11,583 nucleotides of DNA from a virus (taxonomy: Duplodnaviria > Heunggongvirae > Uroviricota > Caudoviricetes): IMG/VR virus record IMGVR_UViG_3300044846_001093, positions 64,001-75,583 of that record. One strand, given 5' to 3'. Each line of letters begins with the position of its first letter. The stretch's first letter is position 1. The position numbers were made by a program, and so were the translations under genes. Below, one piece after another: positions 6,239 to 11,395 of the stretch. The notes beneath the pieces were generated by a model that ran no database searches, was not told where the DNA came from, and worked only from the letters and a program-made list of their open reading frames with translations.

Positions 6239-6652
6239 TTAGTGTATTATTTGTTTATTAGTACTTGGTTCTTGAAGTAGTTCTTCTGAATCGTCTTCTA
6301 GGTCAAGTTCTCCATCAGAGTCAAAATCATCAAGTAGTGATTCATCAATCTGATCAGTGAAGTTTGAAATCATTTCATTAGCTTCAACGACTGCGTTGTT
6401 ATAGTATTCAATCAATGCTGTTCTTGGTTCAACGATAGTAAGAACTTCATTCATAGAAATACATGCAGAGTTTGTTTGAACCAGTTCCATAGGTAACCAT
6501 GGAGACATTAGCAACATTGATTTACCGGCAGACAGCCTCTTATAAAAGAGTGTCATCGGGTCATACATCTCTATGATGCCATTGCTATTCAGATGGTAAG
6601 AAGTAATGATATCTTCACCATCTTTGAGCCTAATAATTCTAACATTATCCAT
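6239..6652 (-). CDS. Conserved hypothetical protein between uvsW and gp55 (possibly Sm-like fold), acidic C-terminal tail
   Basis: N-terminal VRIIRLKDGEDII and PWLP motifs; syntenic position; 8-nt overlap with the uvsW C-piece stop. Fold assignment is tentative. Confidence 0.7.
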   Translation of the reverse strand: MDNVRIIRLKDGEDIITSYHLNSNGIIEMYDPMTLFYKRLSAGKSMLLMSPWLPMELVQTNSACISMNEVLTIVEPRTALIEYYNNAVVEANEMISNFTDQIDESLLDDFDSDGELDLEDDSEELLQEPSTNKQIIH

Positions 6653-6975
6653 TTTTTATATCTATCTTGTAAAATTTATAAGAGAATTTCTCCTCTTCAT
6701 ATATTTTAGCACGTTCCACAAAATGTTTCAACGTAAAGTTGGTATGTTTACCTATTCTAAAATCATCAGCAATATCATATAAAGTCGCAGAGTCTTTGTT
6801 GTCACCCTTACGTAAGACACGACCTAAAGATTGCAGATTACGAATCCGAGACTTTGATGGTGATGCAAAGATCGCGTTGTGTAGATTCTTTATATTTATG
6901 CCTGTAGAAAAAGGTGCCGAAAGAAGCAATAATAATGCAACCTTCACCTCCTTTCGTAATTTTATCCGGCTTCAT
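6645..6975 (-). CDS. uvsW: UvsW helicase C-terminal piece (motifs V-VI), interrupted by a +1 frameshift at the T5 run 6908-6912
   Basis: ATG at 6975 with AAGGA 6 nt upstream gives MKPDKITKGGEGCIIIASFGTF. The +1 frame continues STGINIKNLHNAIFASPSKSRIRNLQSLGRVLRKG...YDIADD to the stop at 6645. Joined, this is the canonical IIxASxGTFSTGINI motif V and QSxGRxLR motif VI. Confidence 0.85.
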
Positions 6976-7660
6976 TTTGTTTCCTTTTATTTTTTCTAGA
7001 CTCTAACATATTGTTTCTCCAAACAGGATCATTCCACTTTTCCTTCAGTGCGCTTCCATCTGATCCTCGTGGTTTTCGGGTTTTCATTTTGTCGCGAAAG
7101 TTTGGATCATTTTTCCACTTTTCTTTTATTTTCTCACTAGCAGCTTTTCTCTTGTTTTCATCACCATTTACTTCACTCATTTTTGACTTAAATTTTTGTA
7201 AAAAAGCCTCATCCTCATAGCGTTTTTTGGTTCCAATAACCTGTTTATGTGCACCATGTGTTATGTAGTGGTTTACCATTTGTTCAGATTTACTTCGCTT
7301 TTTGTCTTCTGTCCAATATTCCATCATCGCAGTTTTTCTTTTTTTCACAGATTCATCTGTGTGGGACAACCTATTTTGATTGACATAAGACCAACCTCCT
7401 TTTCCTCCAGAATTTAGATTATATGACATTTCATCATCCGGAGAAATCAAACTATTTTCAACATCATTCATCTGAGACTCATCCTCACATAACTGAATAA
7501 TTTGTTTTTCAAAATTTTCAATTCCATACTTAGCTATGGCTTTTCTTATGAGTGTTCCTGAACCCATGTAATTGTCGTTAGGATTTTCTGTAATATGTTT
7601 ACCTATGTAAAATCTGCCGTTTATTTTGTTTATTATCCTATATATCGTGTAGTATTTCAT
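6962..7660 (-). mobile_element. Seg-like GIY-YIG homing endonuclease inserted inside uvsW
   Basis: YTIYRIINKINGRFYIGKH, YMGSG..I.KAI.KYG..NF, YNL..GG.GG; basic C-terminal region with repeated KW(K)NDP; GGAG RBS 5 nt upstream of the ATG; visibly AT-richer than flanks. Confidence 0.92.
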
Positions 7661-7675
7661 ATTGACTCCAGTAGA

Positions 7676-9001
7676 CTACTTTTTATTATTTAGTATCCAA
7701 CGGGCATCAATATCATCAGTTTCAGTAATATATTTTGCTTTTTTTGTTGTGCCGTCTGTCAGCGGTATCAATTCGTTTTCCGAACATTTGATTTTAGTGT
7801 CACCAAACTCAAAAAGTAGTTCACCTTCTAGTGGATGTGAGTCCGTAAGGTGACGAATCTGTTCACGAGTTTCAACATCTGTGCCACCATGCACAAAGAA
7901 TACCTTACGATCTTTCTTCTCAGCGTCAATCAGTCGCATCAATTCTTTGCCGTGTTTTTCAACCAACTGAAACAAAATCAGTGAGTTGCCTTTCAGCGAC
8001 AGTGCTAGATTCTTGATGAATGCATTTCGCTGTGGACACTTTACCAAGTAATCTATCTCAGCTTGATAGTCCCAACCACGACTCAGTTTACACACTTCAT
8101 CTGAGTATTTCAGAACTAGACATTTAATTTTCAATGATGATACTTGATCATTGTCCATCAATTCTTTTGTTGTAATCACCTTCAGTACAGGACCAAACAG
8201 ACCCTCCAAGACTAGCTTATGTGTCTGTGTGCCATCCAATGTGCCTGTACAACCTATGCGATATTCTGTGTTCTCCAGATTTGACATGATAGTTGACAAG
8301 GACTTTGCTTTGAAGTCGTGTGCTTCATCGCCTAGAACAAAATCAAACTGTTCAAAATATTCTTTAGGTAAATTGTATATTGATTGCCATGTGGTGATGG
8401 TCAAAAACTTATCTGTGCTTTTGTCTTTGCCTGCATACTGTCTGTGACAGTATTGATCAGAGTCATAACCATATGATTTGAAATCAGAAAACATCTGTTC
8501 AGCAAGCGATGTTCTCGGAACAATTAGCAGTCCCTTCTTGCAATTCTGTTGAATGTGGCGTATAATCAGATACAGAATGAAAGACTTGCCACTTGATGTT
8601 GGAGATAGAAGTAAGGCTCTTTTGTTACGTATTGCATGAACGAACGCATCAATCTGGTAGTCGCGCTGTTCTAAATGCTCTGGAATGCCCAGAGTCTCAA
8701 TGAAGTCTTTTGCTTCTTTGATTGAGAAATTTTCTAATGCGTCTATTGACTTGTCGTACACGACGGTGTACTCTCGGTCATCACAAAATTTTTGAATGTA
8801 TGGAATTAGCCCATAGTAAATTGTGTTGTCTTTGATTGAGTAGAGTCTGATAAAACCGTCCCAAAGTTTGTTCTTGAATGCTGGAACAAACTGATATCCC
8901 GGAACTCGGAATGAAAAATGTTGACTCAATTCCTGAGCTAAGTCTCTATCACATTCAACCTTCACAAAAGCGTCATTCAGCTTGTGTATTATCAATTTCA
9001 T
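7676..9001 (-). CDS. uvsW: UvsW helicase N-terminal piece (motifs I-IV) with a 55-aa foreign C-terminal tail
   Basis: RDYQ, SPTSSGKS (I), VPRTSL (Ia), DEAH (II), TGT (III), LILFQLVEKHG (IV), VHGGTDVETREQIR. Helicase similarity stops at about 7844. Confidence 0.93.
   Translation of the reverse strand: MKLIIHKLNDAFVKVECDRDLAQELSQHFSFRVPGYQFVPAFKNKLWDGFIRLYSIKDNTIYYGLIPYIQKFCDDREYTVVYDKSIDALENFSIKEAKDFIETLGIPEHLEQRDYQIDAFVHAIRNKRALLLSPTSSGKSFILYLIIRHIQQNCKKGLLIVPRTSLAEQMFSDFKSYGYDSDQYCHRQYAGKDKSTDKFLTITTWQSIYNLPKEYFEQFDFVLGDEAHDFKAKSLSTIMSNLENTEYRIGCTGTLDGTQTHKLVLEGLFGPVLKVITTKELMDNDQVSSLKIKCLVLKYSDEVCKLSRGWDYQAEIDYLVKCPQRNAFIKNLALSLKGNSLILFQLVEKHGKELMRLIDAEKKDRKVFFVHGGTDVETREQIRHLTDSHPLEGELLFEFGDTKIKCSENELIPLTDGTTKKAKYITETDDIDARWILNNKK
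7679..7843 (-). other. Putative degenerate Hint (intein-like) segment fused to the UvsW N-piece
   Basis: LLFEFGDTKIKCSENELIPLTDGTTKKAKYITETDDI follows the Hint pattern (Y/F)xIxLEDGxxIxCTxxHxFxTxxGxxxAxxLxxGDxI, but the block-B His position is Glu. Recognised by eye only. Confidence 0.45.
7687..7694 (-). promoter_or_regulatory. Possible variant late promoter (ACTAAATA) for the intra-uvsW endonuclease
   Basis: ACTAAATA on the minus strand, about 27 nt upstream of the endonuclease ATG, inside the tail coding sequence; 6/8 match to TATAAATA. Confidence 0.4.
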
Positions 9002-9677
9002 TTTTTACCCATCTATGTATAGTTTTGTGGGATACACCAAAGTGTGTTATTGCATCACCTATGCTAGGGAATTGTATTCCGCGCACAACAATCTTCTTTT
9101 TTCGGGAATTACTAATTTTATTACGAACCTCAAGTCTTTTTGATGAATTTGCTTCACCTCTAACGCCACATTTGCTGTGATCCCTATTATTCATCTTTCC
9201 ATCATCCCATGCTTTTTTGATGGCAGCACCTCTCTTTTTCAAATCGCACTTTTTTCCAAACTCTCGTTGTTTTTCTCTATCATTGAAAATGCAATTTGAT
9301 CTACCCAATTTCCATCCAACAGGAACATCTTCATCTCTATTGATGTATTTGTCTTTTTGGCCATCCGTTATCCATTTTTTATTAGATACTGTATCGCCTC
9401 CATCACCCTCTTCAATTTTCAGATTTGCCCAGGAGTCAGAATTTACAACATCATATTCTAAACTTTTTTCTATGGCAATTTTTTTGAACTGCTCAAAGTT
9501 ATCGGATTCAAAAATCAGTTCTGTTGTTATATCATTTCCATACTTTTTCAAATGCGATTTCCATAATTTGCCTGATCCTTTATATGAATCATATTTTTCG
9601 CCATCAGATTTCGTGTAACAGAGGTATTTCAGTTTTGTGATCTTATGTGTTTTGATCATCAATTTGTGTGTTTGCAT
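8973..9677 (-). mobile_element. Divergent GIY-YIG-type homing endonuclease with C-terminal HTH (NUMOD1-like) between uvsY and uvsW
   Basis: KLMIKTHKITKLKYLCYT...YKGSG..WK.HLKKYG...WANL..E.GDGG; C-terminal F.SI.DA..HFGVSHKTI.RW; AAGGAG RBS; own late promoter. Confidence 0.8.
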
Positions 9678-9693
9678 AGTGATCTCCTTCAGT

Positions 9694-9701
9694 TATTTAT
9701 A
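9694..9701 (-). promoter_or_regulatory. T4-type late promoter TATAAATA
   Basis: Exact TATAAATA, intergenic, just upstream of the AAGGAG RBS and the ATG at 9677. Confidence 0.85.
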
Positions 9702-9722
9702 AAATAACCAAATTCAACCATC

Positions 9723-10157
9723 TTATACACCCTGTATGAATCGCTCCCAGTCAATTAGAGATTTTAGTTGGAACGTTCTACTATGTAGTTCTTTCAAAAC
9801 AGACTCACAGTAACTAATGATCTGCTCATTCATTCGTCTAGCTGCAAGATACTTGTTCATGTCCTCATCAGCATCCATGTAAGTTGCGATATCAGACTTC
9901 AATACAAATGGAAATGGTTCCCATCCATGTCTCTTCAAGTCTTCATTAGTCATCTTACCTGTGTAGTATTCCCACTTGATTTTCTTCATGCGGTTGTACT
10001 TGAACTCCAAGTCCTGAAGCTGATACTTATGGTGTGATAATATGTTTAGGTACTTTGCGTGAAGTTTAGGTATGTCTAACATTGCTTTGCCAGGTTCTGT
10101 CCTGTCAACGTTGGCATCTTTTATCCACTCATTCATAATTTCGTCAAGTTTGCTCAT
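9723..10157 (-). CDS. uvsY: UvsY recombination mediator
   Basis: IPKLHAKYL, KWEYYTGK, PFVLKSDI..YMDADED, R.FQLKS.IDW.RF..G; AGGAG RBS; gp3-uvsY-uvsW synteny. Confidence 0.92.
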   Translation of the reverse strand: MSKLDEIMNEWIKDANVDRTEPGKAMLDIPKLHAKYLNILSHHKYQLQDLEFKYNRMKKIKWEYYTGKMTNEDLKRHGWEPFPFVLKSDIATYMDADEDMNKYLAARRMNEQIISYCESVLKELHSRTFQLKSLIDWERFIQGV

Positions 10158-11324: not shown

Positions 11325-11353
11325 AACAAAAAGAGGGAACCGAAGTTCCCTCT
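11325..11353 (-). terminator. Rho-independent terminator after gp23 with C(UUCG)G tetraloop
   Basis: AGAGGGAAC-TTCG-GTTCCCTCT perfect 9-bp stem followed by a T-rich tract. Confidence 0.93.
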
Positions 11354-11395
11354 AAAATATCTCTCTTTATGGAGATTTATTTCCTTACATAATGC

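Follow-up and report, generated by a model that had tools for sequence, protein, structure and literature searches.

The uvsW helicase gene of a tailed phage (IMG/VR record IMGVR_UViG_3300044846_001093) is divided into two pieces by a free-standing GIY-YIG homing endonuclease gene, and the downstream piece is itself put out of frame by one extra base. The window, by which we mean the whole stretch of DNA that was analysed (11,583 nucleotides, positions 64,001 to 75,583 of the record), contains the N piece (7676-9001), the endonuclease gene (6962-7660) and a C piece beginning at the ATG at 6975, all on the minus strand. The pieces are best read as a helicase of two chains that is probably assembled without splicing, and whose C chain is made by a programmed +1 frameshift. 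The features on which this reading depends are collected in Table 1.

Table 1. Features of the split uvsW locus, in window coordinates
Feature	Coordinates	Strand	Basis
Helicase part of the uvsW N piece (UvsW_N, motifs I-IV, first part of RecA2), residues 1-386	7844..9001	-	Pfam, tblastn
C-terminal tail of the N piece, brought in by the cassette, about 54 aa	7676..7843	-	Homology to split-UvsW tails and intein
Free-standing GIY-YIG homing endonuclease gene, 232 aa	6962..7660	-	Pfam GIY-YIG; PHROG 314
C-piece head in frame 0, ATG 6975 to TTT codon 6912-6910, 22 codons MKPDK...ASFGTF	6910..6975	-	Translation
RNA hairpin; 5' arm Shine-Dalgarno-like AAAGGAGGTGAAGG, 3' arm ASFGT codons plus UUU-U shift site	6909..6955	-	Folding
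Shift site ACC-TTT-T-TC, extra base in T run 6908-6912	6907..6915	-	Alignment to uninterrupted alleles
Body of the C piece, 87 codons and a stop read in the +1 frame: motif V STGINIKNL, motif VI QSLGRVLR, C-terminal helices	6645..6908	-	Translation
Stop codon ending the 45-aa frame-0 product when no shift occurs	6838..6840	-	ORF translation
1,210-nt tract, 100% identical to L025 and L009	6904..8113	-	Mismatch map
Second homing endonuclease gene (Seg-like, 234 aa), located between uvsY and uvsW	8973..9677	-	PHROG 314 E 1.2e-6; weak NUMOD1

The split locus

A preliminary description of this DNA had placed the split inside the second RecA domain, and this is borne out by the open reading frames, the Pfam domains and the existence of relatives without the cassette: the split is real. 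The N-piece ORF encodes 441 aa with the domains UvsW_N (PF21241, 61.8 bits), ResIII (PF04851, 72 bits) and DEAD (PF00270, 54 bits), and GKS, DEAH and TGT are visible in its translation, that is, UvsW_N followed by motifs I-III of RecA1. By tblastn, residues 3-387 align to uninterrupted UvsW in more than 2,500 phage records. The likeness ends at residue 387, in ...REQIRHLT at base 7844, which is also where the helicase part had been thought to end. Motifs IV-VI of RecA2 do not occur in one polypeptide; motifs V and VI lie on a second set of ORFs in another frame. A search for relatives with a contiguous gene, which the description had proposed, finds one uninterrupted uvsW of 488 aa in eight contigs (L010-L017) that are 92-94% identical to the window, and the GIY-YIG gene is missing from such close relatives. 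The gene order uvsY - uvsW - DUF6561 - gp55 - gp47 - gp46 is the same in the window and in its relatives.

The nuclease has the 232 residues first ascribed to it. Its GIY-YIG domain (PF01541) scores 24.7 bits against a cut-off of 22.6, it matches PHROG 314 'homing endonuclease' with E 3.6e-35, and a weaker match to SegE_GIY-YIG (21.4 bits) falls below the cut-off of 25. The second, Seg-like gene is outside the split itself and within the same mobile-element hotspot; in L004/L025 the region around it, window 8906-9722, is replaced by 98 nt. No second copy of uvsW was found on the contig. ARAGORN predicts no tRNA gene on the 75.6-kb contig (46% complete), and hence no frameshift-suppressor tRNA was seen there. 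Megablast of the region against phage genomes gave no match. A uvsW annotated as two CDSs in Synechococcus phage ACG-2014d is broken at a different point, has no nuclease gene, and is not relevant here.

The change of frame in the C piece

The ATG at 6975 stands six nucleotides after AAGGA, within the last 14 nt of the endonuclease ORF, exactly as had been described. The same description assigned motifs V-VI to the ORF that starts there, and this part has to be corrected. The ATG-6975 frame encodes 22 helicase-like residues, then runs out of frame and stops at 6838 after 45 codons, and the motifs are found in a +1-frame ORF that spans 6645-6947 as a whole. The C piece is thus not one separately initiable ORF, since a +1 shift is needed 22 codons after its start. 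In the relatives, frame 0 stops 4-33 codons past the site at no fixed position. The C body is 64-67% identical to the C-terminus of cyanophage UvsW, nearly identical to the uninterrupted alleles L010-L017, and matches PHROG 9690 and 17901.

Compared with the uninterrupted alleles, the window has a single extra base at the site (GGCAC-C-TTTTT-C against GGCAC-TTTTT-C). A P-site tRNA-Phe on UUU can re-pair here one base downstream, with UUU in the window and with UUC in its relatives. All of the IMG/VR contigs with the site (24/24) carry TTT followed by C or T, and a scan in which these four bases were left free recovered the same 24. The frameshift is also present in JGI contigs (20 contigs for P0076), and at least eight head lineages have the shift site. 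The extra base is T in five groups and C in the others, and never a purine. Most sites read TTT-C with three T only, which excludes polymerase slippage. The 0-frame A-site codon in the window is UUC, which is not rare. An exact-pattern scan of metagenome contigs for the head gave no match.

The frame under codon-level selection changes at the shift site. Upstream of it, in the head, the third positions of frame 0 vary most (0.53, compared with 0.29 and 0.20, for codons not fixed by the search pattern), and downstream of it, in the body, those of the +1 frame do (0.57, compared with 0.33 and 0.24). This change of selected frame, together with the site, is conserved in at least eight lineages. 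The head begins with MKP(T/D/N)K in Vibrio, Dickeya and all marine split alleles.

The shift site forms part of a predicted RNA hairpin, which in the window has a minimum free energy of -17.8 kcal/mol (z -3.7), with none of 200 shuffled sequences folding as well. All nine cassette lineages fold similarly (z -2.1 to -4.2). Among controls without the extra base, 10 of 13 score between -1.9 and +0.7; three of 10 uninterrupted genes fold well at the same place (z -2.4 to -3.8). RNAalifold found no consensus structure in an ungapped alignment of 13 sequences, in which the 5' arms are out of register, and for this reason the sequences were folded one by one and their pairs entered in a table aligned on the 3' arm. 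Two-sided pair changes appear at -11, -13, -16 and -19 in this table, which is made from each sequence's own minimum-energy fold and is biased towards pairs. The AAGGAG motif of the 5' arm is kept in two different codon phases. A scan for promoters and terminators found nothing above chance and did not score the hairpin as a terminator. The hairpin sits 5' of the site and overlaps it, behind a shifting ribosome, and this position fits no established stimulator.

A mobile cassette and its possible readings

The DNA of the nuclease gene is 100% identical in two other contigs whose flanks differ by 3.5%. The identical tract shared with L025 and L009 holds 270 nt of the N body, the tail, the nuclease gene, the head, the hairpin and the shift site, and outside the tract L025 has an L010-type background when aligned to cassette-free alleles. 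Judged from this map of mismatches, it is a recent gene-conversion (homing) tract. A second case of co-transfer is seen between L094 and L099, where pS is 0.035 in the tail and 0 in the head, compared with 0.72 in the N body and 0.66 in the C body. In these cases the tail, the nuclease gene, the head and the site are always inside the shared tract, which ends 6, 19 or 90 nt past the site. The cassette is thus polymorphic for presence and absence with co-conversion of its flanks, being absent from L010-L017 and identical in diverged backgrounds. Tail, nuclease gene, head, hairpin and shift site travel together between diverged uvsW genes, nuclease and recoding element moving as one unit in the manner of T4 mobA/gene 60.

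Split genes are also found without a nuclease. In the Vibrio phages D506 and K452 the N and C ORFs overlap by ATGA with no nuclease gene between them; synonymous sites are saturated, and pN/pS is 0.13 in the N body and C piece and about 0.25 in the tail. The nuclease-free split UvsW thus persists under purifying selection in Vibrio phages. Simple decay, against which the description had argued, is unlikely. Marine derivatives that have lost the nuclease gene, found on at least 20 contigs, retain the split, the shift site and the open frames, with pN/pS of 0.10-0.25 between L094 and L115.

The most serious alternative, although an unlikely one, is that uvsW has been inactivated. In this case the cassette would be purely selfish, the frameshift a lesion that hitch-hikes with it, and the pieces would look intact through repeated invasion of intact genes. 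The flanks outside the shared tracts are indeed recipient sequence, the frameshift is always inside the converted tract, and in L103 the C body is cut short by a stop after 28 codons of the +1 frame. In T4, uvsW is dispensable, so that a selfish cassette could spread even if it were to cripple the gene. Most of the helicase sequence in the flanks may come from a recipient gene that was still whole not long ago, and its conservation is therefore no proof of function after the invasion. This also limits the use of dN/dS, which had been named as a refuting test: with flanks made of recently invaded recipient DNA it cannot prove function here. What argues against inactivation is the behaviour of the cassette's own parts. 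The head (pN/pS 0.1-0.3) and the tail (pN/pS 0.25-0.5) are selected across lineages at pS up to 0.9, the TTT and its pyrimidine are invariably present, and the hairpin is maintained. The +1 frame remains open for 84-89 codons in 19 of 20 distinct alleles, and the nuclease-less derivatives persist even though they are unable to home.

It is also conceivable, but quite improbable, that the C chain is made without any frameshifting, from a start inside the +1 frame such as the GTG at 6947, which directly follows AAAGGAG; a different hydrophobic segment would then replace the first strand. The window, L092, L094, L097 and L102 have a +1-frame GTG or ATG 0-5 nt past the Shine-Dalgarno-like motif, and gene callers predict the resulting ORFs of 96-100 aa. 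This spacing is shorter than usual, and the arrangement is not general. In the L100 group, where the head begins with TTG, the +1 frame ahead of the site is interrupted by stops and offers no start codon, which excludes independent initiation there, and in L101 and L113 stops block this frame to within a few codons of the site. Furthermore, it is the frame-0 peptide that is conserved ahead of the site, and not what the +1 frame would encode there, and the frame-0 MKPxK start is kept in all split forms. For the window allele taken by itself, internal initiation at GTG 6947, which abuts the Shine-Dalgarno-like motif, is conceivable.

Removal of the interruption by splicing, as a group I intron or a split intein, would give a single UvsW protein. 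We regard this as very improbable, although ORF123 of Dickeya phage LIMEstone1 has been named a putative intron and the N-piece tail shows homology to a segment of an intein. There is also a precedent in the 'fractured genes' that Dassa et al. reportedly found in 2009, phage genes in which a free-standing endonuclease gene lies between the halves of a split intein. As in those genes, uvsW has an N part with an intein-like segment, then a nuclease gene, then a C part; unlike them, it is without block A (Cys1), the block B histidine and blocks F and G. The tail had been called foreign in the preliminary description, and turns out to be a conserved peptide rather than chance read-through, an intein relic common to the split UvsW of Vibrio and Dickeya phages. 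Homologous tails close the N pieces in Vibrio phage D506 (E 5e-5) and in Dickeya phages (E 2e-5). A tail profile matches 97 protein clusters, where the match nearly always forms the C-terminal end of a protein ~440-470 aa long, and also four proteins inside a Pfam intein/HINT envelope. By BLASTP the tail is 44% identical over 48 aa to the intein of P0217 (E 2e-8), and it is homologous to the block B region of true inteins in phage terminase and gyrB genes. It covers intein residues ~46-92 only, and the histidine of the block B TxxH has given way to Glu or Asp. In a word-based protein search the tail matched its own cluster only, Pfam searches with tails alone gave no match at E up to 10, and a PDB profile search gave a chance match only. 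Derivation of the tail from a decayed UvsW C-terminus was set aside because the intein match accounts for it better; hhalign paired only the shared REQIR helix and one strand (probability 60%). On this evidence the tail is a conserved intein-derived relic, carried by the cassette and devoid of splicing residues.

Other results point the same way. Pfam detects no intein domain in either the N piece or its tail. Of the intein blocks only the block B region can be made out, and the relic follows ...IRHLT too closely for a block A to fit. With 12 residues the C-piece head cannot accommodate blocks F and G, and the C part has no His-Asn ahead of it. Without these splicing blocks protein splicing is not possible, and the pieces would have to associate non-covalently. 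At the RNA level, Rfam gave no intron even with lax filters: the group I core (Intron_gpI) was not detected in the window with E allowed as high as 1, nor in 6850-7900 with E as high as 10, and no other Rfam family was found in the region in two runs. The ATGA overlap of the nuclease-less forms leaves no space for an intron, tail and head evolve as peptides, and the frameshift would remain after splicing. Since neither an intron nor a working intein was detected, a two-chain enzyme without splicing, as first proposed, is the best reading.

Finally, the run of five T in the window might suggest an error of sequencing or assembly, in which case the C piece would be one ordinary ORF. This idea has a negligible chance of being right, the same base being present in two other assemblies and in diverged alleles from more than 20 metagenomes, mostly as TTT-C without a homopolymer. 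By its recurrence the extra base is genuine.

The favoured reading, two unspliced chains with a programmed +1 shift, would then run as follows. A mobile cassette invades uvsW, bringing in this order the intein-derived tail, the GIY-YIG gene, the MKPxK head, the RNA hairpin and a one-base UUU-Y site. The N chain of 441 aa would carry motifs I-IV and the tail. Translation of the C chain would begin at ATG 6975 in coupling with the end of the nuclease ORF, and 22 codons in the ribosome would slip +1, the tRNA-Phe moving from UUU to the overlapping UUU, and go on to read motifs V-VI. That ribosomes do shift here, and with what efficiency, is inferred. Both chains would assemble into the helicase; that they bind each other and form a working enzyme is likewise supposed, and the tail, together with the head, may act as the docking element. 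By analogy with T4 mobA/gene 60, the extra base may also shield the cassette allele from its own nuclease. A fuller version, put forward tentatively, is that of a widespread intein-derived cassette in aquatic T4-like phages, in which a two-chain uvsW helicase might depend on a hairpin-guided one-base 'hop', the extra base might be both the price of expression and the source of self-immunity, and the relic and MKPxK head might dock non-covalently.

Known systems and meaning

Judged by its arrangement, the closest analogue of the uvsW cassette is the mobA/gene 39/gene 60 cassette of T4 with its 50-nt translational bypass (Bonocora et al. 2011, as cited in PMC5009743; Manning and Atkins, bioRxiv 10.1101/2022.08.31.505936). 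In what these sources relate, as in uvsW, a free-standing homing endonuclease gene splits the gene of a replication or repair enzyme, the downstream piece has a recoding signal a few dozen codons past its start, and nuclease gene and signal move jointly into the same site of diverged genes. Nuclease-less 'hit and run' derivatives retain the split in both. The T4 host gene is a topoisomerase gene and its nuclease is of the HNH type, compared with uvsW and GIY-YIG here. The 50-nt hop of T4 corresponds to a gap of one base, to be crossed by a +1 slip of tRNA-Phe with no stop codon at take-off; the uvsW hairpin is 5' of the shift site and includes it, and the N piece has an intein-derived tail. 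Protection from the nuclease is for uvsW a matter of analogy.

In a similar example, nrdA of Aeromonas phage Aeh1 is split by mobE, one of the 'genes in pieces' (Friedrich et al. 2007, as cited in PMC2988022). According to the citing text, a homing endonuclease gene again interrupts a conserved gene for an enzyme, and the two resulting polypeptides are expected to come together unspliced. Unlike uvsW, the system as presented there has no recoding step and no intein-like tail, and the Aeh1 activity was shown biochemically, whereas uvsW is known from sequence.

The preliminary description knew of no earlier UvsW case, but one had been published: in Dickeya phage LIMEstone1 uvsW is split into ORF122-124, presented as the putative intron I-LimI (Adriaenssens et al. 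2012, PMC3296691). LIMEstone1 and Vibrio crassostreae phages (e.g. OZ195882, MW824370) share with the window the split point, a homologous N tail (40-52% identity) and an MKPTK start of the C piece. Unlike the window they have no frameshift, AAGGAG motif or hairpin; between the pieces LIMEstone1 has a different ORF of 299 aa and the Vibrio phages have nothing. The 'intron' label of LIMEstone1 is probably wrong. The plain split of uvsW has thus been described before, though an arrangement like that of T4 gene 60 has not been described for this gene.

For annotation, the locus has the direct effect that gene callers report a truncated helicase and an unrelated ORF of 100 aa with the wrong N-terminus. 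For evolution, it shows a route by which a split intein could give rise to an enzyme of two chains that needs no splicing. If ribosomes do shift, this would be a natural and phylogenetically broad +1 recoding site in a core replication/repair gene of phages, for which at least eight sequence variants already map the constraints: the UUU, the pyrimidine that follows it, and a hairpin with a Shine-Dalgarno-like arm. The cassette would then be a second and much shorter counterpart to that of T4 gene 60, and would support the view that homing endonucleases spread together with recoding signals.

Layout of the interrupted uvsW gene

The window makes up the final 11.6 kb of an IMG/VR viral contig of 75.6 kb, estimated to be 46% complete, and its minus strand holds all genes of interest, in the order typical of T4-like phages: uvsY, uvsW, a DUF6561 gene, gp55-like, gp47 and gp46. 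The nearest cultured relatives, Pelagibacter and cyanobacterial myoviruses, are about 50% identical and have a single uninterrupted uvsW. As the preliminary description had stated from the sequence, the helicase part of the N piece ends at ...REQIRHLT and a GIY-YIG ORF follows; the alignment of the N piece to uninterrupted UvsW, which stops at residue 387 (base 7844), the domains of the N piece and the Pfam and PHROG 314 matches of the ORF bear this out. The ATG preceded by AAGGA, embedded in the end of the nuclease ORF, is also where it had been placed. That motifs V and VI resume in the ORF opened by this ATG is correct for the start and the helicase-like beginning, but the motifs lie in the +1 frame, while the ATG's own frame continues after ASFGTF into unrelated sequence and stops at 6838, 45 aa in total. 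The relatives with contiguous uvsW that a BLAST search was proposed to find do exist: eight IMG/VR contigs, with UvsW 92-94% identical to that of the window, carry one 488-aa gene reading ...REQIRHITEKENDAIIIASYGTFSTG.... Alignment to these uninterrupted alleles shows a single extra base in the window, at GGCAC-C-TTTTT-C.

Features of the uvsW region, in window coordinates
Feature	Position	Strand	Evidence or remark
uvsY	9723-10157	-	gene-order neighbour of uvsW
uvsW N piece, 441 aa	7676-9001	-	UvsW_N, ResIII and DEAD domains
GIY-YIG ORF, 232 aa	6962-7660	-	Pfam above cut-off; PHROG 314 'homing endonuclease', E 3.6e-35
C-piece start ATG	6975	-	AAGGA six bases ahead; within final 14 nt of nuclease ORF; reads MKPDK...ASFGTF
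Predicted hairpin	6955-6909	-	MFE -17.8 kcal/mol, z -3.7; 0/200 dinucleotide shuffles as good
+1-frame ORF with motif V (STGINIKNL) and motif VI (QSLGRVLR)	6645-6947	-	translation

A second homing endonuclease gene, Seg-like and 234 aa long (8973-9677, minus strand; PHROG 314, E 1.2e-6), lies between uvsY and uvsW, whose start it overlaps, and resembles T4 segE, which is also upstream of uvsW. Two of the records compared with the window, L004 and L025, have 98 nt in place of 8906-9722, the first 32 uvsW codons of the window are recoded relative to its relatives, and in records L094-L096 the spot is taken by an HNH_3 gene. Elsewhere in the window, a weak Rfam match to STnc290 (11328-11380, minus strand; 28 bits, E 0.15) covers a GC-rich hairpin with a run of U after it and is most simply an intrinsic terminator.

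The extra base and the predicted hairpin

When protein sequences were searched with the +1 ORF, several ~100-aa ORFs on long contigs came up, 68-78% identical, whose N-termini are likewise the +1 reading of the IIVASFGTF strand. Their contexts share the same architecture, with a Seg-like GIY-YIG gene (L092) or only its last codons (L094-L096; 20 contigs). A degenerate DNA pattern (AS(F/Y)GT, TTT, Y, STGI) matched 24 IMG/VR contigs, and since the same 24 were returned when the four bases TTT + Y were freed, the Phe codon is always TTT and the extra base always C or T; in uninterrupted genes the Phe codon is TTC in a third of cases. With such a site, tRNA-Phe on UUU can re-pair one base downstream on UUC or UUU. 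The heads (in the window, the first 22 codons of the C piece) sort into at least eight diverged groups. Outside the bases that the search pattern fixes, variability at the three frame-0 codon positions before the site is 0.29, 0.20 and 0.53, and at the three +1-frame positions after it 0.33, 0.24 and 0.57, in both cases peaking at the third. Frame 0 stops 4-33 codons past the site, at no fixed position. Other short UvsW C-terminal ORFs in the protein database, e.g. MEEEKDAIIVASFGTFSTG, of 104-110 aa and from contigs no longer than 7.8 kb, begin in frame immediately ahead of this strand and may be more kinds of uvsW interruption without frameshift.

In every frameshifting lineage AAGGAG(G) or AAGGGGGG stands 31-37 nt ahead of the TTT codon; as the motif sits in two different codon phases (Lys-Gly-Gly or Lys-Glu-x), it is kept at the RNA level, and the unshifted Vibrio and Dickeya heads are without it. 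This motif forms the 5' arm of the predicted hairpin, with the ASFGT codons and CC-UUU-Y as the 3' arm. Similar folding is seen in 9/9 cassette lineages (z -2.1 to -4.2), while among 13 controls without the extra base ten lie at z -1.9 to +0.7 and three, all uninterrupted genes, at -2.4 to -3.8. In a table of pairs anchored on the 3' arm and drawn from each sequence's own minimum-energy fold, a choice that favours pairing, a U to A change in the F/Y codon is accompanied by A to U in the 5' arm, and the pairs at the third position of the Ser codon are G-U, U-G, U-A or G-C. RNAalifold on an ungapped alignment of the hairpin region saw no structure.

Movement of the cassette and the fate of uvsW

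We use cassette for the tail (the last ~54 aa of the N piece), the nuclease gene, the MKPxK head, the hairpin and the shift site taken together. Two contigs, L025 and L009, have the same split as the window, and a tract of 1,210 nt (8113-6904), comprising 270 nt of the helicase part of the N piece (its body), the tail, the nuclease gene, the head and the extra base, is 100% identical between them and the window. Both sides of the tract differ by about 3.5%, and beyond it the haplotype of L025 is that of the uninterrupted L010 group. To judge from these alignments, the identical tract within diverged flanks is the signature of homing with co-conversion; since this put the cassette into recipient flanks, flank dN/dS says little on function after the invasion. 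Between L094 and L099, two more diverged cassette alleles, pS is 0.035 in the tail and 0 in the head, compared with saturated values of 0.72 and 0.66 in the N and C bodies; L092 and L103 show the same trend, and common tracts stop 6, 19 or 90 nt past the shift site. The nuclease gene is absent in L097/L104-L106, L101/L117 and L094, where its last codons are fused to the tail, and these alleles keep the split, the head, the hairpin and the extra base. In the nuclease-free pair L094/L115, pS is 0.55 in the tail and 0.29 in the head, and pN/pS is 0.10-0.25 in every part. Such patterns indicate that the cassette travels as one unit, from which the nuclease gene can be lost. In L099 (2178-5749) and L115 a further cassette, carrying a 253-aa nuclease gene, interrupts uvsW at about residues 178-200 and so leaves it in three pieces; the first of them, too, has a tail of this type at its end (...ITLLDGTIKKYKEH...NDDIL). 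In the cassette allele of L103 (7920 onward) the +1 frame of the C piece is closed by a stop 28 codons in; either this copy is genuinely broken or the assembly is at fault.

In the window allele, whose flanks were invaded recently, the intact flanks say little against a dead uvsW carried along by a selfish cassette. This reading is unlikely; it leaves unexplained both the constraints on site, head, tail and hairpin and the fact that derivatives without the nuclease gene persist. A start inside the +1 frame, at GTG 6947, would be possible in the window allele. In the L100 group, however, the head begins with TTG and the +1 frame before the site has stops and no start codon, and in L101 and L113 that frame is closed until a few codons ahead of the site, which excludes a general independent start in the +1 frame and makes this reading quite improbable.

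The tail and a possible two-chain helicase

The tail had been called foreign; instead it is homologous to the N-piece ends of split UvsW in Vibrio and Dickeya phages and to the intein block B region. In Vibrio crassostreae phages, which have a pair of ORFs annotated 'DNA helicase', the tail matches the C-terminal end of the first (E 5e-5), and in Dickeya Limestonevirus phages it matches the 'UvsW N-terminal part' (E 2e-5). MKP(T/D/N)K opens all C pieces (window, marine, Vibrio and Dickeya). In LIMEstone1 a 299-aa ORF named I-LimI, termed a putative intron in the 2012 paper (PMC3296691), sits between the pieces, and in the Vibrio phages nothing separates the two ORFs, which share an ATGA overlap. 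Two Vibrio phages compared have saturated synonymous sites and pN/pS of 0.13 in the N body, 0.13 in the C piece and about 0.25 in the tail, so that the split form persists stably under selection. A profile built from seven marine tails matched 97 protein clusters at E up to 0.001, nearly always at the extreme C-terminus of proteins of ~440-470 aa; four more matches fall within Pfam intein/HINT envelopes (gyrase B and other phage proteins). By BLASTP the tail is 44% identical over 48 residues to the intein of one of these four, protein P0217 (E 2e-8; intein residues ~46-92, block B included). Because the block B histidine is replaced in uvsW tails, block A has no room, and blocks F and G were not found in the head, we regard the tail as the relic of a split intein without splicing ability. 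These features, and the ATGA overlap in Vibrio, also make it very improbable that splicing removes the interruption. Three phage gyrase B-like proteins (P0203, 641 aa; P0135; P0193) have genuine inteins with a block B region similar to the uvsW tail, and in P0203 the intein N part continues directly, in the same frame, into a GIY-YIG domain; the uvsW cassette may descend from an element of this kind.

As a source of the extra base, sequencing error is practically negligible: the base is common to diverged alleles, and most of them read TTT-C-TC without a homopolymer, which excludes both such an error and polymerase slippage. The comparisons thus argue that the extra base is a conserved recoding site. 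Given the split, its mobility and conservation and the switch of frame, we infer ribosomal shifting and its efficiency, chain assembly, activity and immunity as follows. Translation of the N chain would begin at 9001 and that of the C chain at ATG 6975, the latter probably coupled to ribosomes terminating on the nuclease ORF. Peptidyl-tRNA-Phe at codon 22 would slip from UUU (6912-6910) to UUU (6911-6909), and decoding would continue as UCU-ACA-GGC (Ser-Thr-Gly). The two chains would complete the second RecA domain non-covalently, with the intein relic, and perhaps the MKPDK head too, as a possible docking element. If the parallel with T4 mobA/gene 60 holds, the extra base may also shield carrier alleles by disrupting the site in the motif V codons at which the nuclease would act.

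Genes split by homing endonucleases are known, PMC2988022 describing Aeh1 nrdA, T4 genes 39/60 and Aeromonas phage gene 43. In T4 gene 60, as PMC5009743 and bioRxiv 10.1101/2022.08.31.505936 report, nuclease gene and recoding signal form one mobile cassette, and in the uvsW cassette the nuclease gene and the putative recoding site likewise travel together. The preliminary description named no described UvsW case and did not exclude one; a split uvsW is already annotated in LIMEstone1 (PMC3296691). The annotation of Synechococcus phage ACG-2014d (KJ019130; L002:2992-4547) gives uvsW two CDS separated by 95 nt; the break is a different one, near residue 290 and with no nuclease gene between, and it was rejected as the same split. 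Full-text literature searches found no report of a uvsW frameshift. What is new here is a probable one-base +1 recoding site with a predicted hairpin in uvsW, conserved in at least eight lineages, an intein-relic tail common to marine, Vibrio and Dickeya phages, and population evidence for the whole set moving as one cassette.
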